A stretch of 46,400 nucleotides of DNA from Flavobacteriales bacterium. Its GTDB lineage: Bacteria > Bacteroidota > Bacteroidia > NORP154. The notes below the pieces were generated by a model. That model was not told where the DNA came from. It did no database searches and saw only the letters and a program-made list of their open reading frames with translations. The DNA is taken from the NCBI GenBank assembly GCA_012965955.1, contig DTRK01000002.1, forward strand, positions 1-46,400, given 5' to 3'. The stretch's first letter is position 1; every line of letters starts with the position of its first letter. Shown here piece by piece: positions 1,490 to 18,514 of this stretch. Position numbers and translations under genes: made by a program.

Positions 1490-1553
1490 TATAGAAAAGA
1501 CTTTAAGTTTCGTTCATAGACGGGCAAACTCCTAATGGTTGCCCGGAGTGACA

Positions 1554-4346
1554 TTACTCTAATGTGTAAATATACAATGTTCTTCCCGCTGCACCAGTGA
1601 CCAGATTTACCGTGCCACCCTCGTCGATTAAGCTAAAGGGGCTATTGCCGTATAAGGGAAATCCCAAGGATAGTGATCCATCTTTGTTGAACAACAGCAA
1701 TTCGTCTGACCTGTCGGCTACGATTCCTACTTTAGCAATATTCCCGGTTAAGCTGTAAATACCGGGCGAGTAAATGATATTGTTGTCAAAAGACTTGTTG
1801 ATAATAAGATTCTTATCAGCATTGTACACGAGCAGTTCAGATTGGTCCAGCAATAGGTAGTCCGATTGTCCGTCCCCGTCGATATCTCCATACTCAAAAT
1901 ATGGTGGGTGCTTATAGTGATCGAAGATCACACTATCCATCTTGTCGCCAAAGGAAATCTTGAAAATTCCTCCGGTTGAATCTGAAGCAAGCAGATAGGT
2001 GCTCTCTATAGAATTTCCCGTTTCAATGAAGTACCTGTCATTGTACAGGTACTTGAATCGCTTCTTAACCTTGATTCTTTCACTTCCTTTTCTGTCGACC
2101 GTATAGATTTTCCCATTGGAGTCGATAAAGAAGATGTAATCTTTGCCACTGAAGCTTAGATGAGAAAATGGCGCGTATACTGGAGCTGCTGTTTTATCAC
2201 ATTCCCATCCTTTCACAAATTTGCCATATATGTCATAGTTGTATATGCTGCCATCTTCGGTGGCAATTAAAATTCTGTATTTTTTGTTTTTGTCATAGTC
2301 AAATGCTTTAAGCCCATTTGTGGCGGCAGATTTTAGTTTAATAGGGTATTGCTCTACGTCTCGCCCCTTTCTATCCAACATGTGGAGGTGTGTCCGCGTG
2401 TTAAACAACAATTGCAGTTTGTTGTTCTTGTAAATGTCCACTTGCTGCACGTCTCCCAATATTTGCCCATCGAGTTCTTTTTTCCATAGCACATTCCCTG
2501 ATTTGTCAATCAGGTAAATCTGGTTGTTGTCGTCCTGAATAAAGATTTCGGAATTCTTGGAATAATGGTTCAAAACGATCCATGGTTTTCTGGTTAATGG
2601 GGCATCTAGCCGCGACTGTTTGAATAATTGAGCTCTTTCGGTATAGCCGGGGTTATAGCTCAGGAACAGGTTTGTGTAAAGCATTCGGTCCTCGTTATCC
2701 AGATATCCGGGGAGAGCACTCATACTATATTGAATACCAACCGCTTCGAACTCCTTTATCACCTCCATATTGCTCCTAATCTCTTCCGCAAGCTTGTCAG
2801 TGACTGCCCCCTGAAGTAATTTGCTCTTCAGGCAAATGGGTATGTTATAATAGACGTAACAGTTGGTTTGGGATGAAATGTTAGATGCAAATGATTGATA
2901 GTGTATGTCGCGCTGCAGGGTTCGTTCAGCCAGGTTTGCACCTATAAAAGACTTAATATCGTGAACAGAATTGCCAAAGATGAGATATTCATCAATTATA
3001 GTATAGAAATTTTCTTCCACTTCAGAAAAAGTTGGCCCCAGCAAATTGCCCCACACATTGCGCAAGCCAAGTACTCCAATAATGTGACCCCGGTATCGTT
3101 CAAGACTATCTGCTTTGTCAACTCCATTCGTAACACCAACCCTTACGGAGATATCTTTAAACAAGGGTTCACTTTCTTCCGCATCCCTCATTTTAATGAT
3201 GAAATAGTTGGTTATTGCTTCGCGGTTAGGATTTGGTGAATTGATGTTTCCGGTAGTTACTATCGCGAACTCCGACCCTATAACTGATAATAGGTCGTTT
3301 TGCAGGTCAAGGCTGTAATCTGCATTTAATTTGTCAATTCTGCGCTGGTAGTCGTACATGGTTTTATTACCACCCATGAAGAACTTAAATGCGGTATAAT
3401 AGCTTTCAAAATCGTCTATGCCAAAGTATGTGAACTTGGCGGTGTTATCAGGCATGATGTCCGTAACCTCTATTTCCTGAGGCGTTTGGCCGAAGAAGAC
3501 ACTAAAGAACTTATCCGAGGAATCCTCGGGCAGTGTCAATCCATTGAACATTAAGAAGTTCGGCTTGATCTTGAGATCTAGCGCTGACCAATTTGCCAAA
3601 CCTTCAATAGGTGCGAGTTCTTTGGCTGTCTTTGGATTTAGGAAGTTGCCCATCAATTTGGGAAACATCTGATAATTGATATAAACATTCGCATCAGCAT
3701 TTTCGCCAGAGGTAGCATGTACCTTAGCAAAGGCCGCATTCTTCGTTTTGTCGATAAGCGAGTTGCCCGAGTTAAGCTGCCGTATCGCATCTTCCACCAG
3801 CATGGGACTGAAGGATCCGATTAGGATTCCTTTTGATAACGTGTATGAAAAAGTTCTTCCTTCTCCTAAAGAGATATCAGATATGGTTACCTTATCATAT
3901 AATCGTTTCTCCACTGTCAAATCCCGAGAAGCTCTTATAAATACGTCATCTATTGTTGAGATTTGGCTGATGTTCTCAAGCCCAATGAGAAATAAGAAAT
4001 CATAGTCGTTAGCCCCCGTCAAATGAGCGGATATGAATGCGGGCCTACCCTTCACTAAAGCTGACACTTGTCCTTCAACTGATAGGATGGAGTCGAGGCA
4101 AGTGGTTTGGTCATTGAGGGCCTTAATAAACCCTATATCTGATAATGTTCTCCAAAAAGACGTGGTTTTTTCAAGAGATTGCCAGGCCTTTTGGAAATCA
4201 TTGCTCTCCATTATTATAGCTGCGTTAGATGGGATAGCATTGATCGCTTTGCTGGATGGAGATTTCAGCTGCTTGTAAAAGAGATAGCCGACCACTCCGG
4301 CTCCCAGAATCACTAGCACAAAAAAGGTTATCAGAATATTTCGCAT
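1554..4346 (-). CDS. Large membrane-anchored hypothetical protein (930 aa) with a C-terminal beta-propeller / FG-GAP-like region
   Basis: ATG start. It has a single N-terminal TM helix (ILITFFVLVILGAGVVGYLFY). The C-terminal ~350 aa contains repeated Y/F-x-hydrophobic-D-x-x-G-x-hydrophobic strands (IYLIDKSGNVLW, IYTVDRKGS, LLLFNKDGSL) and a Ca-binding-like DIDGDGQSDYLLLD motif. Confidence 0.75.
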   Translation of the reverse strand: MRNILITFFVLVILGAGVVGYLFYKQLKSPSSKAINAIPSNAAIIMESNDFQKAWQSLEKTTSFWRTLSDIGFIKALNDQTTCLDSILSVEGQVSALVKGRPAFISAHLTGANDYDFLFLIGLENISQISTIDDVFIRASRDLTVEKRLYDKVTISDISLGEGRTFSYTLSKGILIGSFSPMLVEDAIRQLNSGNSLIDKTKNAAFAKVHATSGENADANVYINYQMFPKLMGNFLNPKTAKELAPIEGLANWSALDLKIKPNFLMFNGLTLPEDSSDKFFSVFFGQTPQEIEVTDIMPDNTAKFTYFGIDDFESYYTAFKFFMGGNKTMYDYQRRIDKLNADYSLDLQNDLLSVIGSEFAIVTTGNINSPNPNREAITNYFIIKMRDAEESEPLFKDISVRVGVTNGVDKADSLERYRGHIIGVLGLRNVWGNLLGPTFSEVEENFYTIIDEYLIFGNSVHDIKSFIGANLAERTLQRDIHYQSFASNISSQTNCYVYYNIPICLKSKLLQGAVTDKLAEEIRSNMEVIKEFEAVGIQYSMSALPGYLDNEDRMLYTNLFLSYNPGYTERAQLFKQSRLDAPLTRKPWIVLNHYSKNSEIFIQDDNNQIYLIDKSGNVLWKKELDGQILGDVQQVDIYKNNKLQLLFNTRTHLHMLDRKGRDVEQYPIKLKSAATNGLKAFDYDKNKKYRILIATEDGSIYNYDIYGKFVKGWECDKTAAPVYAPFSHLSFSGKDYIFFIDSNGKIYTVDRKGSERIKVKKRFKYLYNDRYFIETGNSIESTYLLASDSTGGIFKISFGDKMDSVIFDHYKHPPYFEYGDIDGDGQSDYLLLDQSELLVYNADKNLIINKSFDNNIIYSPGIYSLTGNIAKVGIVADRSDELLLFNKDGSLSLGFPLYGNSPFSLIDEGGTVNLVTGAAGRTLYIYTLE

Positions 4347-4373
4347 TTGAGGACTTCCTATTGCGGCTTAAAA

Positions 4374-4985
4374 TTACAATGTTTGAATCATTTGGCCACC
4401 CTCAGCAGGGAGCAATCTAAAACTGGAACGGTGCAAGTCTGTAGCTCCGTATTGTTCTATCGCTGCTCTGTGCTTTTTGGTTGGGTACCCCTTGTTTTGA
4501 TTCCAGCCATATTCCGGCTGCTTTTCATGAAGGCCTAACATGAATTCATCCCTATGTGTCTTTGCGAGTACTGACGCAGCAGCGATTGACAGGTACTTTC
4601 CATCGCCTTTAATAATACAGTGGTGTTGTATGTTCTCATAGGGCCTAAACCTGTTACCATCAATTAACAACGCGTCAGGCCGCACTGACAATCCATCAAG
4701 AGCCAGATGCATACAGGAGATTGACGCTTGTAGTATATTTATCACGTCGATTTCATGATTATCGATCATGGCAACATTCCACGCGATCGCCTCTTCCTCA
4801 ATAATTGGCCTTAGCATGTCTCGTTGGCGTTCGGTTAATTGCTTGGAATCGTTGAGAAGGGGATGCTTGAACTTTCGTGGAAGAATAACCGCTGCTGCAA
4901 ATACGGGCCCTGCAAGACAGCCGCGCCCTGCCTCATCACATCCAGCCTCAACCAATGCCTTGTTCCTGTATCTTTTCAAGTTCAT
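4374..4985 (-). CDS. rnhB: Ribonuclease HII
   Basis: It carries the motif [22 protein letters not shown] and a later LIDGN motif. I prefer the start at MNLKRY (ATG 4985..4983), which forms an ATGA overlap with the upstream stop. The ORF-track start at 5039 would overlap the GT4 gene by 58 nt. Confidence 0.9.
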
Positions 4986-6109
4986 AGTCCCAGTACCTTT
5001 TCCATTGATATCCAGAGTTTTTCCGCTGTTATGTCCCACGAGAACACCTCAGCCCGTTCAAGGCCTTGGGTGACTAATGCCTCATTATTATCAGGGTTGT
5101 TAGCCACGTCGCTCATCTTTTGCGCTATCGAATCCGGCGAATTAGGATCACAGAGCAAAGCTGCTCCGCCAGCTATTTCAGGCATGCAGGAGATGTCGGA
5201 TGTAATCACTGGAGTACCACATTTCATGGCTTCAATTATAGGAACACCAAAACCTTCGAAAAACGAAACGTATGTCATAGCCAGAGCAGCTGGAATAATA
5301 AATTTCAGTTCATCCGGTGCCGTATGACCTTTGAATATGACGTCATCTTTGAATTTCATTTCCTTATACGCGTTCTCAATTTCCGATGTCCACCACTTTT
5401 TCTCTCCGATGATCATTAATTTAACCTGGTTGGTAGAATTGGATTTGAACAGGTCAAATGCTCGAAAAAGGTTGGCAATATTCTTTCTGGGTAGGAGGGA
5501 ACCGATAAACAAGAAGTATGGATTCCCTGTAGCATATTTCTCTCGAGCTGCTGTCTTATCCTCCTCGGATATTGTCATGTAAATTTCGTTGGCCCCATTG
5601 TACACAACGTCGATGTCGTCTTCGTTAATACCGTACTTTGCAACAATATCTGCTTTAGAGTACTCAGAAACTGTTGCGATGCGAATGGCTTTACGCGCGA
5701 ATTTTGGGAAGAAGTACTTGTAATACCTTCGCGTCATCGCTGGCAGCTGTTCGGGAGAATGTTCAAAATTGATGTCATGAATGACCGGAATAGACCGGGT
5801 AGGGGTGTCGAGTGATAAATAGCCATCGGTGGATAAAAACAAATCTGCCCCTAATTGACCAAGGGCTCTTTGAACCGAGTACTCAAACCAGAGATAAAAC
5901 AGAACGGGATGTCGTGCAGGCAAGCCGATTTGTACTGGTATGATATTGTCAGAGAAAACAAACTCTTCACTATAGGGCCGATCGAAGAGGAAATAGAACT
6001 GGTGCTCAGGGTGGCTTTTGGTGATCCTTTTGAGCGTCTCAAAAGTGAACCAGCCGATGCCTTCCAGTTTATTCTTGAGTAACAGCCGGGTATTTACTGC
6101 GATCTTCAC
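4982..6109 (-). CDS. Glycosyltransferase, family 4 (GT-B fold)
   Basis: GTG start ([10 protein letters not shown]...). The C-terminal [21 protein letters not shown] motif is the E-x7-E signature of retaining GT4 enzymes. Confidence 0.85.
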
Positions 6110-6206
6110 TTTTCAAGGATTGGACGAAAGTACTTATTAGAATTAATTTCTATACCTGATGAAATGAAAAAATGTGTTTTCTGTGGAATACAACCCTGTT
6201 TCTATC

Positions 6207-6214
6207 TATTTTTG
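6207..6214 (+). promoter_or_regulatory. Candidate Bacteroidota -7 promoter box (TATTTTTG) for pheT
   Basis: It matches TAnnTTTG exactly and lies 20 nt upstream of the pheT ATG. There is no clean TTG at -33. Confidence 0.3.
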
Positions 6215-6233
6215 TTCGATTAGAACGAAGTAA

Positions 6234-8648
6234 ATGAAGATCTCATATAATTGGCTGAAGGATTATATCGAATTGGATCAAAATCCAGCGGAACTCTCTG
6301 TACTGCTCACTGATTGCGGGCTTGAAGTAGAGGGTGCAGAAGAACATGAGTCCGTAAAGGGGAGCATGGAGGGACTGATCGTAGGAGAGGTCAAGACCAA
6401 AGACAAGCATAGCAACGCAGACAATCTTAGCGTAACTAGCGTAGATATAGGAACCGGGGAGATGTTGCCGATTGTTTGTGGAGCACCCAATGTGTCAGTT
6501 GGCCAGAAGGTGATTGTTGCGCCTCCGGGCGTTACCTTACATCCAATTGAAGGAGAGGCGTTTAAGATTAAGAAAACCAAGATTAGGGGCGAAGTGTCTA
6601 TGGGAATGATTTGTGCTGAGGACGAAATTGGACTCGGCATGGAGCACGATGGGATCATGGTCTTGGATGCCGATGCTGAAATTGGTGCTGACGCGAACAG
6701 GTATTTTGATATTTCCAGAGACACGATATTTGACATAGGCCTCACCCCAAACAGGATTGATGCAGCTTCTCATTTGGGAGTGGCTCGAGACCTGGTTGCT
6801 GTATTTGCGCATCGAGAAGCGGCGCCAGTCCTGAAGAGGCCTTCAGTAGAGGCGTTCCATGTCGACAATCACGATTTGAACATTGAAGTAGTGGTAGAGG
6901 ATGAGGTGGCATGCCCGAGATATTCTGGCCTTACCATGACCGGATTGAAGGTAGAGGCTTCACCAAAATGGCTTCAAAATAAGCTACAGGCGATTGGACT
7001 CAGTCCGATTAACAATGTGGTGGATATCACCAACTTTGTGTTACATGAGACAGGGCAACCTTTACACGCTTTTGACGCTGAAAAAATTGATGGAAGAAAA
7101 ATATTGATTAAAAAGCTTGATGAAGGGACTTCCTTTAAAACCCTTGACGAGGTTGATCGCAAGTTGTCAAAAGATGATCTCATGATTTGCAGTGCCACTC
7201 AGGGTATGTGTATAGCTGGTGTGTTTGGTGGTGTTGATTCTGGCGTAACGGAGGAATCCGCGAGTATATTCCTGGAAAGTGCCTATTTTGATCCGAAGAC
7301 TATACGAAAAACCGCCAGGCGACATGACCTTAATACGGAAGCATCTTTCAGATTTGAAAGAGGGGCAGACCCCAATATCACCGTTTATGCCTTGAAGCGG
7401 GCAGCCATGTTGTTAAAGGAAATTGCAGGAGGAAGCATTTCTTCGGCTATAGCTGACATCTATCCAAAGAAGATCGAGGATGTCAAGGTCAGGTTCAATT
7501 ACGCCAAAGCCGATCAATTGATAGGCCAACGGATTCGAAGAGATGTGATTAAGAGAATTTTTACGTCTCTGGAGATTGAGGTCATAGATGAATCCGATGA
7601 TCATTTGGAAGTTTTGATTCCTCCTTACAGGGTAGACGTTACCAGAGAGGTTGATTTGATCGAGGAGGTATTGAGGGTTTACGGCTATAATAATATTGAG
7701 GTCAGTGATACAGCACATTTTACATTCGCCACTAACAGCCACAATGCCGTTAATGTAATTGAGGTGGTATCTGAGCTTTTATCTTCTTCGGGCTTTTCAG
7801 AGATCATGAACAATTCTATCACCAGGTCCTCCTATTATGGCGATGCGGATGGCATTGTTACCATAATGAATCCGCTTAACGCTGAGCTTGATGTGATGCG
7901 AAAAACGCTCTTGTACGGGGGACTGGAATCTGTTGCCAGAAACCAGAACCACCAGCGGCCGGATGTTAAATTTTATGAGTTCGGGAAATCATACTTCGTC
8001 AAGGAGGATGGAACATACGGTGAACAAAATGCTTTGACCATCCTTATATCTGGTATAATTGACGCAGAAAGGTGGAATACTGAGAAAAAGCAAGTGAATT
8101 ACTATTACCTGAAGGGAGCCGTAGATAAGGTTATTGCGAAGTTGGGCATATCGAAACCAGGGGTATCAATTGAATCTGTTAATTCCGGTCAATTGAATGG
8201 TGAAGCCTACAGCATCTTAAAGAAAAACGTAGTAAAGTTTGGCGAGTTGAACAGTTCTGTTCTGCAAAAATTCGACATAAAGAACCCTGTTTTTTATGCT
8301 GTGTTTAATTGGGACAATGTAGAGTCGTTAATGAATGTCAATAAGACCAGGTTCAAGGAGATTCCAAAGTATCCAGCAGTAAAGCGGGACCTTGCATTAC
8401 TCATTGACTCGAGTGTTAGATTTGAAGAGATTGAAAGGCTGGCTAAGAGTGCGGAGAAGAAACGGCTGAAGAGCGTGAATCTTTTTGACGTGTATGAGGG
8501 GGGTACGATCAAGAAGGGCAAGAAGTCATACGCTGTTAGTTACGTAATCCAGGATGAGTCCAAGACTTTGAAGGACTCCGATGTAGACAAGATCATGGGA
8601 AAGTTGATGGATGTTTACAAAAAAGAGTTAGGAGCAGAAATCAGGTGA
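6234..8648 (+). CDS. pheT: Phenylalanine--tRNA ligase beta subunit
   Basis: It has the canonical N-terminus MKISYNWLKDYI, a length of 804 aa, and tRNA-binding, B3/4, B5 and anticodon-binding-like segments. Confidence 0.95.
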   Translation: MKISYNWLKDYIELDQNPAELSVLLTDCGLEVEGAEEHESVKGSMEGLIVGEVKTKDKHSNADNLSVTSVDIGTGEMLPIVCGAPNVSVGQKVIVAPPGVTLHPIEGEAFKIKKTKIRGEVSMGMICAEDEIGLGMEHDGIMVLDADAEIGADANRYFDISRDTIFDIGLTPNRIDAASHLGVARDLVAVFAHREAAPVLKRPSVEAFHVDNHDLNIEVVVEDEVACPRYSGLTMTGLKVEASPKWLQNKLQAIGLSPINNVVDITNFVLHETGQPLHAFDAEKIDGRKILIKKLDEGTSFKTLDEVDRKLSKDDLMICSATQGMCIAGVFGGVDSGVTEESASIFLESAYFDPKTIRKTARRHDLNTEASFRFERGADPNITVYALKRAAMLLKEIAGGSISSAIADIYPKKIEDVKVRFNYAKADQLIGQRIRRDVIKRIFTSLEIEVIDESDDHLEVLIPPYRVDVTREVDLIEEVLRVYGYNNIEVSDTAHFTFATNSHNAVNVIEVVSELLSSSGFSEIMNNSITRSSYYGDADGIVTIMNPLNAELDVMRKTLLYGGLESVARNQNHQRPDVKFYEFGKSYFVKEDGTYGEQNALTILISGIIDAERWNTEKKQVNYYYLKGAVDKVIAKLGISKPGVSIESVNSGQLNGEAYSILKKNVVKFGELNSSVLQKFDIKNPVFYAVFNWDNVESLMNVNKTRFKEIPKYPAVKRDLALLIDSSVRFEEIERLAKSAEKKRLKSVNLFDVYEGGTIKKGKKSYAVSYVIQDESKTLKDSDVDKIMGKLMDVYKKELGAEIR

Positions 8649-8677
8649 AACATCTTTGATTCAGGAATGTTGTTTTG

Positions 8678-9355
8678 ATGCTTGTTCGCAAACCCATTGA
8701 ACCGTATAAGATCGCCGCTTACGCTGGACTGGTAGGGTGTACCACTATTATTATGTGCACATTTATTACGGCCTGGATGTTCGAGGAAGCCGGTGAACCA
8801 TACTCAATATTGAATCACTTTATATCAGAGTTGGGCCATACGCAGCGAAGTGCCTATTTCTGGGTTTTCAACAGCGGACTCATTTTCGGCGGGGCCTTTA
8901 TGATAATTTTTGCCCTGGGCATACGGCTTGGGTTTACCGGAAAACTGCGGGACACGATTAGCGTAATGGCATTTATCGCAGCTATATCTTGTTCACTTGT
9001 GGGTGTTTTCCCGGTGGACGATTTTGAGAATCACGTGACAGTAGCACTGAGCTTTTTCGGGATGGGATTGATAACGATCCTGGTTGTGACAACCCTGACT
9101 CTTATGGGGAAGACCCCCAACTTGCCAAAAGCCTCTATTATTCCGGGTATTATCACCGCAGCCGCTTTTGCTGGCTTCTTGTTTTCACCCAGTGACTTGT
9201 TCATGAGATGGGTGGAAGCTCCAGATGATTTTGTGCGACCCGCCATTTGGCACAAGCCCATGATAGAATGGGTATGCTTCTTTAGCATGCAGGGGTGGAT
9301 TATTATGGTGTCGTGGATACAGCTAGTGCAGCCTACTTCTTCACGTGATTCGTGA
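8678..9355 (+). CDS. Multi-pass membrane protein, possibly DUF998-like
   Basis: About 6 hydrophobic helices. The ISELG...FNSGLIFGG segment resembles DUF998 as I remember it. The ORF-track start at 8675 is TTG, and an ATG follows immediately at 8678. Confidence 0.6.
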   Translation: MLVRKPIEPYKIAAYAGLVGCTTIIMCTFITAWMFEEAGEPYSILNHFISELGHTQRSAYFWVFNSGLIFGGAFMIIFALGIRLGFTGKLRDTISVMAFIAAISCSLVGVFPVDDFENHVTVALSFFGMGLITILVVTTLTLMGKTPNLPKASIIPGIITAAAFAGFLFSPSDLFMRWVEAPDDFVRPAIWHKPMIEWVCFFSMQGWIIMVSWIQLVQPTSSRDS

Positions 9356-10508
9356 TGTCCTTGGCGGTAATGTCCTTGTCACAGAGGATGATCAACCGCT
9401 CCACTACGTTGCGTAGTTCGCGGATATTTCCCGACCAATCTATCTTTTTTAGCTCTGTATATGCGTCTTTTCCAAATTTCTTGATAGGCATGCCATAATC
9501 TTCACAGATCTGTTTTGCGAAGTGCTCGGTCAGGGCTGGAATGTCATCTTTCCTGTCATTCAGCGAGGGAACATGGAGGAGAATAACACTTAGCCGATGG
9601 TAGAGGTCTTCTCTAAAGTTTCCCTCTGCAATTTCCTTTTGCAAATCCTTATTGGTCGCGGCAATGACCCTAACATTCACCTTAATATCTTTCTCGCCAC
9701 CAACACGCATGATCTTATTCTCCTGAAGCGCTCGAAGCACCTTTGCCTGAGCAGACAAGCTCATGTCTCCAATCTCATCAAGGAATATGGTTCCGCCTTC
9801 AGCCTGCTCGAAGTTCCCTTTCCGTTGCTTGATAGCAGAGGTGAATGCCCCTTTTTCATGTCCAAATAGCTCAGATTCGATAAGCTCTGAGGGGATTGCT
9901 GCACAATTCACCTCCACGAATGGAGCTCCGGCACGGTCACTCTTTTCATGCACCCAGCGGGCAACCAGTTCTTTACCCGTGCCATTCTCTCCGGTTATCA
10001 TCACCCTGGCATTGGTAGGCGCGACTTTATCAATCATATCCTGAATGGCGTTAAGTGCCTTTGATGAGCCAACCATGTCATAGGTCTTCGATATTTTTCG
10101 CTTCAACACCTTAGTCTCACTCACTAGTGAGGCTCGGTCCAGGGCGTTTCGTACCGTAATCAGAAGCCGGTTAAGATCCAAGGGCTTTGAGATATAGTCA
10201 AATGCTCCTTTTTTAATGGCATCAACCGCCGTATCTATATTGCCGTGTCCTGAAATCATAATTACCGGAAATTCTTCCCCGTCAGCAATGATCTTGTCAA
10301 GGACTTCCGTCCCATCCATTTTGGGCATTTTGATATCACAGAGAACAGCATCAAAATCCCCAGCTTTGATCATTTTAAGCCCTTCCATTCCGTCAGCGGC
10401 CTCTTCTACTTCGTACTTTTCGTACTCCAGGATTTCACGTAAGGAGCTGCGTATGCTCTTCTCATCATCTATAACCAGGATCTTTGACATAACATCTTCG
10501 GTTTCCAT
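9333..10508 (-). CDS. Sigma-54-dependent response regulator (receiver + AAA+ domain) lacking a C-terminal HTH
   Basis: The receiver has ILVIDDE and LCDIKMP. The AAA+ domain has Walker A GENGTGKE, Walker B IFLDEIGDM, the GAFTSA loop and NIRELRNVVERL. The protein ends 21 aa after that motif. An alternative start (MSKILVIDDE) lies at 10490. Confidence 0.9.
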   Translation of the reverse strand: METEDVMSKILVIDDEKSIRSSLREILEYEKYEVEEAADGMEGLKMIKAGDFDAVLCDIKMPKMDGTEVLDKIIADGEEFPVIMISGHGNIDTAVDAIKKGAFDYISKPLDLNRLLITVRNALDRASLVSETKVLKRKISKTYDMVGSSKALNAIQDMIDKVAPTNARVMITGENGTGKELVARWVHEKSDRAGAPFVEVNCAAIPSELIESELFGHEKGAFTSAIKQRKGNFEQAEGGTIFLDEIGDMSLSAQAKVLRALQENKIMRVGGEKDIKVNVRVIAATNKDLQKEIAEGNFREDLYHRLSVILLHVPSLNDRKDDIPALTEHFAKQICEDYGMPIKKFGKDAYTELKKIDWSGNIRELRNVVERLIILCDKDITAKDITNHVKK

Positions 10509-10668
10509 AGCTAATATATGTGTTTTTAATTTCTAATGACCCATTAACTCAATTGGGCTGATAGCCCACGCTTATCAATTACTGAGCCATAATGGAGAAA
10601 GGGCGGGGGCGAAACGGATATAAGAAACAACCGACAACATTAACTAAACCAAACAATCAGGAGCTAAA

Positions 10669-11610
10669 TCAATCTGTACCCAACTCGCTTATAACGCCCT
10701 CCCTAAGTGAGTAGGTCGAGAGCCTGATCTTGCTCAGGGAGAACTTCTTTATCGTGTAGTTGATAAATGTGCTGGCAAGTGGAATGGTTTCTATCCGATA
10801 GGCTACCAGGCCTTTCATTTGGGCCCTTTCATTAGCATTGGATTTAATTAATTTGCCGTGAAGCTCTTTAAGCTCTTTTAGGGAGAAGGAGTATTCGGTT
10901 TTTCCTCTTAATCCATTCTCACTGCCAGCGTTTTCTAAAATCATCTCTGCCAGTGACTCAAAGGAGCCGGATGACCCTATTAATCCTGATATCGCATACT
11001 TGTCTACCGCCTCGAACAGGATGGACATTTTTTCATTGAGATAAACTTCGAATCGTTTAATATCTGATTCCGTAAGCGGATCGGCTGGTTTTAAGTACTC
11101 AAAGATTCGGGAGACACCCAGGTCGAAACTGTGCTTCCAAAGGACCTGTTTATTATTTGCAATGACGAATTCAGTACTGCCACCGCCTATATCCATGATC
11201 AGCTCGGGCTCATCACCGATTTCCAATGCCCGGCTGACCCCTTTGTAAATCAAGTCTGCTTCCCTGTCTCCGGAAATGATATTGATTTCGATACCAGTTT
11301 GGTTCTCAGCCTCCTGAACGAACTCAGCACCGTTTTGCGCATCTCTCATGGCTGATGTAGCAAAAGCATAGATGTTCTCAACACGATGCTCCCTAATGGT
11401 CATTTGGTGGGCCCTAATCGCAGCTATGCCTCTCTCAAAAGCCTCGGGGGTGATGATCTTTTCGGCAAATCCCCCGGCGCCAAGTTTGGCGGGAATTTTT
11501 GTCTTGAAAACAATGCGGTACTCCTCTCCGTACTGCTTAACAATTAGAAGATTAAAGGTGTTCGTACCCAGATCAATAATGGCGGCACCATTCATTAGTA
11601 CCAGAGCCAT
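10669..11610 (-). CDS. Ppx/GppA-family phosphatase, short form (~310 aa)
   Basis: It shows ASKHA-fold motifs IDLGTNTFNLLIV and DIGGGSTEF. An alternative ATG at 11595 gives a 1-nt TAATG overlap with the permease stop. Confidence 0.85.
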   Translation of the reverse strand: MALVLMNGAAIIDLGTNTFNLLIVKQYGEEYRIVFKTKIPAKLGAGGFAEKIITPEAFERGIAAIRAHQMTIREHRVENIYAFATSAMRDAQNGAEFVQEAENQTGIEINIISGDREADLIYKGVSRALEIGDEPELIMDIGGGSTEFVIANNKQVLWKHSFDLGVSRIFEYLKPADPLTESDIKRFEVYLNEKMSILFEAVDKYAISGLIGSSGSFESLAEMILENAGSENGLRGKTEYSFSLKELKELHGKLIKSNANERAQMKGLVAYRIETIPLASTFINYTIKKFSLSKIRLSTYSLREGVISELGTD

Positions 11611-13949: not shown

Positions 13950-15893
13950 CTAGTACATTATGAGTTTGCCTAAAGCAATCTCACCATTATTGGACCATGC
14001 CTTGTACATGTAAACCCCTGCCATAAGCTCGGATTTATCGAGGAATAGCTGGTCTGATCCAAGAGGGAATTGCCTGGTAAGTACTTTCTTGCCCAAGAGG
14101 TCATACAAAGTAATGAAGACATCATTATTTGTGTTTGCTCGTACAAATGTTACCATCGTATTGCCTCCTGCCGGATTTGGATAAACGGAGATAGCCATCT
14201 TTTTCATGTACTTCTCAATTCCCACGTAGGCACCAATAGTTGTGCTTCCATTTATCATTGCTCCGAGCCCGTCTGTCATGGTTACTGTATACATTCCTTC
14301 ACAAAGCCCTGTAGCCGTTTGAATGGTTTGAGCTGCAGGGTCGTCCCACATATAAGTAAACGGTGCATCTCCTCCCGTAGGAGTAGCTGTTGCCGTGCCA
14401 TCACAATTTCCTGGACCCATTAGTCCCGTACTAGCCACTGTAAGGCCAATAGGAGGAGGGGTTCGCCTTTCCGTAGTGTACTGAAGGAATATGAGCATCA
14501 TCTCATCGTTGGTGGTTATTCCAAATCCCACATCTTCCGTACTGTCGTTATTGAAAGTCGCCTCGTGTATAAGACCGTCATCCGCTTTAATCACGAATGT
14601 ATCAGGATCGAAGAACCTTACTGCAGGATCTTCATAATCATAGTATCCCTGGTAGAATGTATAATCGAAGTCGTAGAACCCGTCATATACTTGCTGTCCT
14701 TTTCCGCCACCTGGATTTCTTAAATAGATGTTGTACCCAACGCCAAATTTATGCGTGTGCGATGATAGCAACCATATATACAAGCTGTCAGCCCCTCCTC
14801 CAGTCAGATCGGCACCAGTAACATCACCCTGGAACGCATAGTCCGTACCATCATTAGGGATACAGAATGGATTTACGCTACAGGGTATAACTGATAATGG
14901 CAATGTGGAATACAATACCAAATCAGAGATCATTTCTGTTGTGGAAGTTTTCTTAGGCCGTAAATACACATTGGTATAAACTTCTGCTTTCAATATGGAA
15001 TCAGGCGAGTAGTTTCTGACGTGCAAGTTCATGTCTAAGGTCGTCCCCGGATCCCAAAAATATGCAGTTCCAAATGGGAGAACGATGTCATTTTCATTCT
15101 GCCACGCTGCAACCATAGTGGTTCCATTAACAAATGCGTCTGTTAATAGGGTAACTTCTCTTAATCCCGCAGGTTGGACATCAGCTGATGCTTGATTATC
15201 GTATTTGTAAATAATATAGTGATGTGACTCAACATCAATATAAGTTTCAAGGCGAGTAATCTCCATATTCTCAGTGATGTTGGGGAGTTTTCGTTTAAGG
15301 AAAAACTCTCTCTCAGAGTTGGGTTCCATAAATATTGATCCAAAGTGGATTTGAAATCCATCAGCAGGGTTAGGAGCAGCTAATGGGTCTTCATGGGCAA
15401 GGCCACCAATATTGTGATAATCCATTACTACTTGTGTGTCAATAACATTTCCGGTTTGAGGGGCTCCATTTAATATCCACGCATTGATAATGTCTATTTC
15501 TACATCAGATAGCGGCGGCGCTGTTTTAGGCATTGCTGCTCCTTGGGCTATACCATCCAGGTCATTGTCAGGGTCCAATCCATTATTCACCTTTTTCAAC
15601 AAGAAACTGAAATGCGGGTAACCAGGATCTACCAGTTTATAGCCCATGGAGACTGCATCGGGATTTGTCGGTGAAACATTGACCATGCTGTTGTACACAT
15701 CAGACTCGGTTCCAACGAGTGTTAGTGGATTGGGCGACACAGCACTGTGACAGGTTGTACCTGCGCAGCTGGTTTGTAAAATTGCGTGAACTTTGCTCCA
15801 GGTACTTTGAGCGGTGAGGTTTTGGGGCAGGGTAGATAGGAGGATAATTAAGGCAAGAGCTACAAATTTACCCACGAAAAGCTTATTAAACAT
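13950..15893 (-). CDS. T9SS-secreted multidomain protein: signal peptide, cytochrome-c-like module, PHM/DBH-like copper monooxygenase-like core, SprB repeat, type-A Por C-terminal domain
   Basis: The signal peptide ends at LTAQ. The SCAGTTCH...MPKTAPPLSDVEIDIINAWILNGAP segment is the cytochrome-c-like module. Candidate copper ligands are HH224/225, H291, H379xH381 and M465. The SprB-type repeat is CDGTATATPTGGDAPFTYMWDD...GMYTVTMTDGLG. The C-terminus VYPNPAGGNTMVTF...GVYMYKA...GKLIMY is the type-A sorting domain. Confidence 0.75.
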   Translation of the reverse strand: MFNKLFVGKFVALALIILLSTLPQNLTAQSTWSKVHAILQTSCAGTTCHSAVSPNPLTLVGTESDVYNSMVNVSPTNPDAVSMGYKLVDPGYPHFSFLLKKVNNGLDPDNDLDGIAQGAAMPKTAPPLSDVEIDIINAWILNGAPQTGNVIDTQVVMDYHNIGGLAHEDPLAAPNPADGFQIHFGSIFMEPNSEREFFLKRKLPNITENMEITRLETYIDVESHHYIIYKYDNQASADVQPAGLREVTLLTDAFVNGTTMVAAWQNENDIVLPFGTAYFWDPGTTLDMNLHVRNYSPDSILKAEVYTNVYLRPKKTSTTEMISDLVLYSTLPLSVIPCSVNPFCIPNDGTDYAFQGDVTGADLTGGGADSLYIWLLSSHTHKFGVGYNIYLRNPGGGKGQQVYDGFYDFDYTFYQGYYDYEDPAVRFFDPDTFVIKADDGLIHEATFNNDSTEDVGFGITTNDEMMLIFLQYTTERRTPPPIGLTVASTGLMGPGNCDGTATATPTGGDAPFTYMWDDPAAQTIQTATGLCEGMYTVTMTDGLGAMINGSTTIGAYVGIEKYMKKMAISVYPNPAGGNTMVTFVRANTNNDVFITLYDLLGKKVLTRQFPLGSDQLFLDKSELMAGVYMYKAWSNNGEIALGKLIMY

Positions 15894-15978
15894 GACCTAA
15901 GGTATTAGTTATGCATAACAAATATACCTAAAATTAGCTGTAAACTACGCCAAGCCTAATGCTGTTTGGACGAAGATT

Positions 15979-17896: not shown

Positions 17897-18514
17897 CTAC
17901 TTGGTCATATGAAGCTCGATTTCATTCACCGCCTTGCTCGACTTGGCCTTACCTGATTTCTGTTTGGGTTTTTTTACAAGCTGCTCTAATGCCTGGTCTA
18001 GCGCGGCCCCTCTTAAATTTCTTGCTACAATGATGCCGTTGGCATCAATTAGCCAGCTAGCGGGAATAGAGTTGACCCGGTACGCTTTTCCTGCTGCTGA
18101 AGCCCATGATTTCAAATCACTCACATGACATGGCCACTCTAGCTTATCTTTGACAATGGCATTCTTCCAATTCGGCATGGCTCTATCCAATGACACTGAG
18201 TAGATAGTAAACCCCTTGGCATTTTTAAATTTCACATCCTTGTACTTGTGATAAACCCTTACAATGTTTGGATTATCCTTTCTGCATGGTCCGCACCAGG
18301 ATGCCCAAAAATCAATGAGTACAATCTTTCCCCTTAGCGATGACAGGGCAATTTCCTCTCCATCGGGATTTTTAAAATTAAGCTCGGGGGCCTGGTTGCC
18401 GACTGCTATTCCAATGGTTGGCTCGTCGGCTGCCTTTTCGTCGTGTAGTTTGAAGCCATAGACAGACAACATAAGCACCAATCCAATCGATAATATTATG
18501 CTTGCTTTTTCCAT
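17897..18514 (-). CDS. TlpA-like thiol:disulfide oxidoreductase (thioredoxin fold), membrane-anchored
   Basis: An N-terminal TM/signal anchor and the active site FWASWCGPC. Confidence 0.88.
   Translation of the reverse strand: MEKASIILSIGLVLMLSVYGFKLHDEKAADEPTIGIAVGNQAPELNFKNPDGEEIALSSLRGKIVLIDFWASWCGPCRKDNPNIVRVYHKYKDVKFKNAKGFTIYSVSLDRAMPNWKNAIVKDKLEWPCHVSDLKSWASAAGKAYRVNSIPASWLIDANGIIVARNLRGAALDQALEQLVKKPKQKSGKAKSSKAVNEIELHMTK

Follow-up and report, generated by a model that had tools for sequence, protein, structure and literature searches.

A predicted PHM/DBH-type two-copper core, joined to a cytochrome c-like module and a type IX secretion tail, in a protein family of Bacteroidota

Does the gene at positions 13950 to 15893 (minus strand) of contig DTRK01000002.1, from the Flavobacteriales assembly GCA_012965955.1, encode a bacterial counterpart of the copper monooxygenases PHM (peptidylglycine alpha-hydroxylating monooxygenase) and DBH (dopamine beta-hydroxylase), whose animal forms produce amidated peptide hormones and noradrenaline? 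Together with tyramine beta-monooxygenase (TBM), these are the textbook non-coupled binuclear copper monooxygenases, and they have been studied almost entirely in a few ascorbate-using animal enzymes. The original prediction, made from positions 1 to 46,400 of the contig (hereafter the window), had recognized in the 647-residue product a complete candidate ligand set for the two copper sites of such an enzyme, CuH and CuM, placed between a cytochrome-c-like module and a tail for type IX secretion system (T9SS) export. The answer towards which we lean, with some reserve, is that the protein belongs to the non-coupled binuclear copper monooxygenases, is of the PHM/DBH type, and is made for use outside the cell and provided with its own cytochrome donor. 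The prediction of a PHM/DBH-type core gains support from Foldseek comparison of a structural model, from profile homology and from the invariance of the ligands. The gene, its predicted domains and the candidate ligands are as follows.

13950..15893, minus: complete open reading frame with ATG start, 647 amino acids plus stop, from translation of the window
13950..15893, minus: predicted order of domains, namely signal peptide, cytochrome c-like domain, two-domain PHM/DBH-like core, SprB-like immunoglobulin-like (Ig) spacer and T9SS type-A C-terminal domain (CTD)
14940..15446, minus: N-terminal beta-sandwich (CuH-type), residues ~150–318, predicted from Foldseek, hhalign span and strand pattern
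14448..14939, minus: C-terminal beta-sandwich (CuM-type), residues ~319–482, predicted from hhalign, Pfam Cu2_monoox_C and Foldseek
15219..15224, minus: H224-H225, matching the PHM CuH ligands H107/H108 (hmmsearch and hhalign; 49/49 and 141/142)
15021..15023, minus: H291, candidate third CuH ligand (PHM H172), from strand position (49/49 and 140/142)
14751..14759, minus: H379-T380-H381, matching PHM CuM H242-T243-H244 (exact alignment; 140/142)
14499..14501, minus: M465 (in DEMM), matching the PHM CuM ligand M314 (in DEMC) (exact alignment; 49/49 and 139/142)

In the translation every residue claimed as a ligand is found where it had been placed: the segment ESHHYIIYKY starts at residue 222 and provides H224 and H225, MNLHVRNY starts at residue 288 (H291), LSSHTHKFG at residue 376 (H379 and H381) and TTNDEMMLIF at residue 460 (M465). 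The whole protein contains 12 histidines and 6 cysteines, and the six-residue pattern is far above chance expectation. The parallel drawn with PHM holds for the order of the ligands, which is the same, whereas the gaps of 66, 88 and 84 residues are similar but not identical to the 64, 70 and 70 of rat PHM.

A word-indexed search retrieved 139 relatives, nearly all from metagenome-assembled genomes (MAGs) of Bacteroidota (Flavobacteriales, Chitinophagales, Saprospiraceae and Sphingobacteriales) and labelled just "T9SS type A sorting domain-containing protein" or "hypothetical". In an alignment of 49 homologues sharing 34–71% identity with the window protein, all six candidate copper ligands are invariant (49/49). 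A profile trimmed to the core, used in an exhaustive search across 1.84 billion representative sequences, matched 255 clusters at E ≤ 1e-30, 556 at E ≤ 1e-10 and 1144 at E ≤ 1e-3, and the family comprises at least 255 clusters at 50% identity. Conservation was also counted in 142 of these representatives, a set independent of the 49-sequence alignment with pairwise identities of 50% or less: H224 and H225 are each kept in 141, H291, H379 and H381 each in 140 and M465 in 139, so that the constancy of the proposed ligands across orthologues is found in both sets. The residue E464, equivalent to PHM E313, is invariant, and T380, equivalent to PHM T243, is kept in 48/49 and 136/142.

An AlphaFold2 model was built from the 49-sequence alignment (mean pLDDT, the predicted local distance difference test, 81.9; pTM, the predicted template modelling score, 0.70). 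Residues 140–480 mostly score between 85 and 95, low values being found in the SprB-like spacer and in the loop 409–416. When the model was compared with the PDB by Foldseek, ranks 1–30 were all DBH or PHM (E 7e-12 to 3e-8, probability 1.00), headed by human DBH (4ZEL, E 7e-12) and including 28 rat PHM entries (1phm etc.) from 4.5e-11, and matches below rank 30 were generic Ig-like structures. Both beta-sandwich domains are covered, since 314–356 columns (~320) are aligned with DBH and PHM, and the predicted fold is thus the paired beta-sandwich that a PHM/DBH-type reading implies. The order of the secondary structure elements, as assigned by DSSP, agrees with that in an AlphaFold2 model of rat PHM. 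No structure of a bacterial homologue was found in the PDB copy searched.

Profile comparisons point in the same direction. The full-length family profile found only CTD structures in the PDB (8glk, 8glj, 8qb1) because the CTD dominated it, and trimming to the core cured this: against all PDB sequences the core profile gave 12 matches, each of them a PHM chain with an E-value of about 0.03, in which SsHtHklG is aligned on PHM RVHTHHLG, ttndEmm on TSSDEMC and eesHHf on DTVHHM. For comparison by hhalign, the rat PHM core reference was checked against 1sdw_A (chain index + 42 = PAM numbering). The family profile matches the single rat PHM sequence with an E-value of 2.3e-4 and a profile of 24 animal PHMs with a probability of 94.5% (E 8.1e-8, 221 columns across both domains), which becomes 96.7% (E 4.5e-10) in global mode; the C-terminal domain alone matches PHM with 92.3% (E 5.5e-7). 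Pfam Cu2_monoox_C (PF03712) matches 20 of the 49 members at E ≤ 0.01, the best at 3.4e-8.

Five of the six ligands align exactly with those of PHM, and the sixth, H291, is placed by its position in the strand. Residues D463/E464/M465 fall on PHM D312/E313/M314 in hhalign, and the HTHxxG and DEM contexts, which had been likened to those of the animal enzymes, do align on PHM HTHHLG and DEMC. In order to compare positions within strands, rat PHM was predicted with the same pipeline (pLDDT 92.5) and the DSSP strings of the two models were read side by side. H224 and H225 are residues 2–3 of their strand, as are H107 and H108; H291 is the seventh residue of its strand, as is H172, N289 being the fifth; H379 is the ninth of a 10-residue strand and H381 lies just past its end, exactly as H242 and H244 do; and the surroundings of M465 and M314 are identical (EEE, six coil, E, coil at the Met, long strand).

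The core is preceded by a helical domain with the features of a c-type cytochrome.

15447..15809, minus: cytochrome c-like (PSCyt1 / class I) domain, residues 29–149, from a profile of the domain and Pfam; helical in the model
15747..15767, minus: variant haem c motif C43-AGTT-C48-H49 (CX4CH), with Cys, Cys and His in 48/48 aligned sequences
15531..15533, minus: M121 (in AAMP), candidate distal axial haem ligand, aligned on the axial Met of cytochrome c6; Met in 42/49

The motif reads CAGTTCH in the translation (residues 43–49). The PDB matches of a family profile of this domain are nearly all c-type cytochromes, with FoxE as the best of them (E 0.011), followed by a dozen cytochromes c6; the C...CH pair is aligned on the haem motif CxxCH of cytochrome c6 and FoxE, and the segment (A)MP...EIE.I..WI on the axial-Met segment of c6 ("NAMPAF") and the C-terminal helix. 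P122 is invariant, as is W139 in the C-terminal helix. Among 25 members scanned with Pfam, Cytochrome_CBB3 is matched by 13, PSCyt1 by 11 (best 2.6e-7) and Cytochrom_C by 9. The cytochrome-c-like module of the original prediction is therefore upheld as a matter of homology, and on the same grounds it may carry haem. What it shares with PSCyt1 (PF07635) and the class I cytochromes c (c6, FoxE) is the N-terminal C...CH, the distal Met-Pro and the C-terminal amphipathic helix, while it differs from them in the variable spacing of the cysteines (four residues here) and in its fusion to a putative copper monooxygenase; PSCyt1 in Planctomycetes is accompanied by PSD-type domains. Of 124 full-length representatives, 119 have a CXnCH motif ahead of the core (CX2CH in 40, CX3CH in 27, CX4CH in 51, CX5CH in 1) and 5 have none. 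Spacing ranges from 2 to 6 in the 49-sequence alignment, where one homologue (P0002) carries CX6CH. Such variation within one orthologous family is unusual for c-type cytochromes, and the maturation system of Bacteroidota would have to cope with it.

The remaining parts of the protein concern its export.

15810..15893, minus: Sec signal peptide, residues 1–28 (MFNKLFVGKFVALALIILLSTLPQNLTA), predicted cleavage before Q29, by sequence inspection only
14214..14447, minus: SprB-repeat-like Ig spacer, residues ~483–560 (Pfam 495–520), from the SprB match and low pLDDT
13953..14186, minus: T9SS type-A CTD, residues 570–647 (PF18962 4.3e-11, TIGR04183 1.2e-11)

The putative signal peptide shows a basic n-region, a hydrophobic core and the junction LTA-Q, and residues 2–21 form a helix in the model; across the family the mature protein keeps AQ(S/T)T as its N-terminus. 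At the other end, the match to residues 570–645 is significant with both PF18962 (Por_Secre_tail, 43.4 bits against a cutoff of 27) and TIGR04183 (44.4 bits against a cutoff of 23), which confirms the type-A Por sorting tail proposed earlier. The SprB repeat proposed ahead of it could be located at residues 495–520 but, with 27.8 bits, falls 0.2 bits short of the Pfam cutoff of 28. The spacer of ~80 residues in which it lies is a minority feature; most members do without it, and the family median of the insert between core and CTD is 15 residues. This spacer weakly resembles the phage neck-whisker protein gp24 (9occ, E 0.023) through a shared GG.AP(F/Y)TY.W...G.YTVT.TD repeat, a resemblance that is probably that of a common Ig-like repeat and not phage-related. 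The organism probably uses the T9SS, since a PorP/SprF T9SS membrane protein with TPR repeats (234.5 bits) and an adjoining CHU_C (type-B CTD) cargo with a PKD-like domain are encoded by one gene pair of the window (43134–44888/44890–46389, minus), a typical type-B arrangement; the core components (PorK/L/M/N, SprA) would be encoded beyond the window.

The CTD is present in 135 of 141 representatives and is extreme C-terminal in 133 of 141, and the core begins at residue 135–165 in nearly all full-length matches. Because the CTD is terminal in most representatives and the start of the core is so consistent, the succession of signal peptide, cytochrome, copper core, optional Ig/PKD/SprB spacer and CTD is the norm of the family. 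One homologue with a T9SS CTD (P0025), whose N-terminus is truncated in the alignment, is labelled as Mariprofundaceae (Zetaproteobacteria), where a T9SS is not expected; the label is likely a binning artefact.

From these parts we infer how the protein might be exported, bind metal and haem, pass electrons and act. The Sec machinery would export it by means of the signal peptide. In the periplasm, judging from the homologies, C43/C48 would bind haem covalently, H49 and M121 serving as its axial ligands, and copper would be loaded at the CuH-type (H224, H225, H291) and CuM-type (H379, H381, M465) sites. To judge by the CTD and by what is known of the T9SS, the folded protein would then cross the outer membrane through this system and be either anchored at the surface or released. 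Following the scheme established for PHM and DBH, O2 would bind to reduced CuM and a cupric-superoxo species would take hydrogen from a C-H bond of the substrate, after which a second electron, coming from CuH over the interdomain cleft, would lead to the hydroxylated substrate. The mono-haem cytochrome c domain would feed single electrons to CuH in place of ascorbate; this is the weakest step of the scheme. The way in which electrons enter at CuH, and their passage over ~11 Å to CuM, are the subject of a long-standing mechanistic debate. In short, the widespread Bacteroidota family probably hydroxylates an extracellular substrate without vitamin C. A fuller version, in which the protein is a self-contained extracellular C-H hydroxylase whose haem c takes electrons from a donor at the surface, passes them to CuH/CuM and so attacks a substrate from the environment (a polymer, a peptide or an aromatic/hydrophobic compound), is put forward only tentatively, as one possibility.

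Several observations weigh against a PHM/DBH-type monooxygenase with its own donor. With regard to the ligands, hhalign puts N289, and not H291, on PHM H172, with H291 two residues on, past a gap; this placement recurs in local, global, low-mact and no-realign modes, with mid-level confidence. N289 was set aside as the equivalent of H172 because the register with H291 on H172 (and N289 on Q170) has an effectively equal column score (8.01 vs 8.05), saves one gap and agrees with the strand position. H291 is the candidate equivalent, in a register that is ambiguous by sequence alone and from a comparison of models that is not a coordinate superposition. With regard to the profiles, single-sequence searches are suggestive, not decisive: Pfam, NCBIfam and phmmer-PDB searches, insufficient alone, yielded no more for the window protein than the CTD, a borderline SprB repeat and a Cu2_monoox_C match that stays below threshold and takes in M465 (residues 431–473, 15 bits against a cutoff of 23, E 0.017), and matches in a genome scan made with this single protein were confined to its SprB and CTD parts. 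Furthermore, Cu2_monooxygen (PF01082) is matched by 0 of the 49 members at E ≤ 0.01. The expectation of Pfam and HHpred-type matches has thus been borne out for the C-terminal domain in other members and for the hhalign comparison, but neither for PF01082 nor for the window protein itself. The N-terminal domain alone is weak in hhalign (17.6%, E 1.4e-3); it does better than the cross-domain controls (0.07 and 0.17), is not significant, and its proposed homology rests on the fold match of the model. The Foldseek TM-scores are moderate (0.53–0.67 normalised to PHM, root-mean-square deviation 5–7 Å), in keeping with a protein of two hinged domains that has insertions and ~15% identity. With regard to the donor, the window protein has CX4CH and not CXXCH, and the axial Met is missing in 7/49, so that haem binding is not assured; the cytochrome, moreover, has no evident electron source at the cell surface. 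Finally, the neighbourhoods of five homologues contain no conserved partner, chaperone or substrate-related gene.

The points concerning the donor bear on the alternative that survives best, in which the core is of the PHM/DBH type but the N-terminal domain is not its donor, being perhaps a haem-free structural or docking module in the CX3CH/CX4CH subclades, and in which a diffusible reductant (algal ascorbate, Fe(II), thiols or reduced humics) serves instead. Spacing is non-canonical in 79 of the 119 motif-bearing representatives, the axial Met is replaced as just described, the domain of the window protein, taken alone, reaches only 13.3 bits with Cytochrome_CBB3, which is sub-threshold, and PHM and DBH themselves use a small-molecule reductant. 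Against this stands the fact that Cys, Cys and His are kept in 48/48 whatever their spacing and that the MP motif and the C-terminal helix with W139 are conserved, which is what selection for haem binding would be expected to leave; some known cytochromes do bind haem through CX3CH or CX4CH motifs, and almost all full-length members carry the cytochrome-like domain along with the core. We therefore regard a non-donor role as unlikely, and retain the monooxygenase with its own cytochrome donor as the preferred reading.

The substrate pocket departs from that of PHM. By hhalign and in the 142 representatives, PHM R240 maps to S377, variable as S/T/Q/G/A, N316 to L467 (I/L/V) and Y318 to F469 (Y/I/F/L), and these anchors of the peptide carboxylate are not conserved in the family. 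Because they are absent, the substrate would not be a glycine-extended peptide, and on this sequence evidence the window protein should not be classed as a peptidylglycine or dopamine enzyme. It shares with PHM (the catalytic core of PAM; Enzyme Commission (EC) number 1.14.17.3; 1PHM, 1SDW) the two-domain beta-sandwich, the HH...H / HxH...M order, the strands and the local contexts. Unlike PHM, to which it is only ~15% identical, it is bacterial, lacks the R240/N316/Y318 anchors and the disulfide cysteines (C338/C344 being confined to a Flavobacteriales subclade of the 49-sequence alignment), carries a cytochrome c-like domain and a T9SS CTD in the same chain, comes without a PAL partner domain and presumably works without ascorbate. 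With DBH, TBM and MOXD1 (EC 1.14.17.1; 4ZEL) it has in common the predicted binuclear copper core and an extra N-terminal domain before it. In DBH that domain is a DOMON, a fold which binds haem in some other proteins; the DOMON is a beta-sandwich whereas the module found here is helical and of cytochrome c type, and neither the window protein nor any of the 49 homologues has a DOMON match in Pfam. It further differs from DBH in having no C-terminal dimerisation domain and in its predicted export by the T9SS instead of the secretory-granule pathway.

The absence of the PHM substrate-binding residues, together with the lack of an operon partner, would also suit an oxidase or electron sink, in which the cytochrome takes electrons from Fe(II) or some other extracellular donor and the copper sites use them to reduce O2, for detoxification, production of reactive oxygen species or oxidation of metals at the surface; that FoxE, an Fe(II)-oxidising c-type cytochrome, is the best PDB match of the cytochrome profile (E 0.011) speaks for it as well. 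This match is, however, marginal and reflects the generic cytochrome c fold. The complete His3 + His2Met non-coupled site is so far known solely in C-H hydroxylases (PHM, DBH, TBM), and the strictness of M465 and the many invariant residues of the cleft suggest a defined substrate, so that we consider an oxidase decidedly improbable. That the protein has no catalytic function and is a surface adhesin or lectin with the PHM/PNGase F fold, or a pseudo-enzyme retaining its histidines, is hardly credible: non-copper proteins such as PNGase F do share the PHM fold, many T9SS cargos are adhesins and SprB-like and Ig-like spacers occur in the family, but retention of each of the six ligands in 139–141 of 142 representatives at ≤50% identity would be unexpected without selection for metal binding, and it is the copper enzymes themselves that head the structural matches. 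The PHM/DBH-type hydroxylase with a fused cytochrome donor thus remains the reading preferred here.

As to the genomic context, the gene is flanked by grpE-dnaJ upstream and by an ABC-2 transporter pair and Ppx/GppA downstream, within a housekeeping region (enolase, citrate synthase, a ribosomal protein operon, SecY, RpoA). The locus of a homologue with 66% identity is fully syntenic, and more distant members lie in unrelated housekeeping contexts; assignment of a function by operon was rejected, no partner being conserved across the five homologue neighbourhoods. Just 5' of the gene one further feature can be read from the sequence.

15919..15926, minus: -7-like motif TATATTTG, ~26 nt 5' of the ATG

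The motif TATATTTG fits TAnnTTTG, which we take to be the -7 promoter consensus of Bacteroidota, and because of this resemblance the gene may have its own promoter. The promoter and terminator scan showed no sigma-70 signal of note near the gene and no terminator-like hairpins flanking it. A plus-strand open reading frame overlapping the gene (14070–14423) was treated as spurious because it is located within a conserved gene.

Some single loci deserve mention. Three genes upstream of the gene, a TlpA/AhpC-like periplasmic protein of thioredoxin fold is encoded at 17897–18514 (minus), syntenic in the contig of the 66% homologue; TlpA/ResA-type proteins take part in the maturation of cytochrome c and copper centres in other bacteria. 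In a Sphingobacteriales MAG (locus L007, CP064999.1) two tandem paralogues, 44% identical and each with cytochrome, core and CTD (4671–6806 and 7001–9097), are followed at 9285–10820 by a FadL/TodX-like outer-membrane protein (26.8 bits with Toluene_X, whose cutoff is 29.7), a neighbour that, at this one locus, gives a possible hint of hydrophobic or aromatic substrates. At another locus (L008) two MbnP and two CCP_MauG (MbnH-like) genes (1515–5361) are divergent from a homologue (7001–8692); this is a copper-associated periplasmic pair, found so arranged at a single locus and not conserved at the others. Within the window, the open reading frames at 260–1489 (409 residues) and 1554–4346 (930 residues), both minus, have no Pfam match at E ≤ 1e-8, and scanning the window for Rfam families and tRNAs gave no match.

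Bacterial members of this family had been called essentially uncharacterised, and this agrees with their annotation, "hypothetical" or T9SS only, and with the literature, in which, within an incomplete coverage that leaves absence unproven, no description of bacterial PHM/DBH homologues, of cytochrome fusions or of T9SS copper monooxygenases was found. A review of the cuproteome places PHM and DBM with the copper proteins of eukaryotes alone (PMC7435645). Bacterial homologues are nevertheless already implicit in the databases, since Pfam finds PF03712 in some members. The catalytic kind is a known one, and what is new is the fusion with a cytochrome c-like domain, the predicted display by the T9SS, a divergent pocket for the substrate and a family of this size; nothing lies outside the known catalytic paradigm, and the proposed function is deduced throughout. 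The closest functional analogy is that of cellobiose dehydrogenase (CDH) and lytic polysaccharide monooxygenase (LPMO), an extracellular copper oxygenase that receives single electrons from a haem domain in place of a small-molecule reductant. The analogy is functional only and involves no homology, as the LPMO site is a mononuclear histidine-brace and the cytochrome of CDH is a DOMON-like haem b domain on a separate protein, whereas here donor and oxygenase would share one polypeptide.

If this reading is true, the family would constitute a branch, bacterial and not dependent on ascorbate, of a class of enzymes regarded as essentially eukaryotic, and would functionally resemble a fused CDH-LPMO system. 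It offers the full ligand set together with a covalently fused candidate one-electron donor, in a protein that would be small, disulfide-poor and probably expressible in bacteria, and the haem would provide a spectroscopic handle on electron delivery to CuH, which would make it notable and experimentally attractive for specialists of copper enzymes. Aquatic and soil Bacteroidota are major degraders of complex organic matter, and the family would add a new kind of oxidative enzyme to their T9SS secretome.

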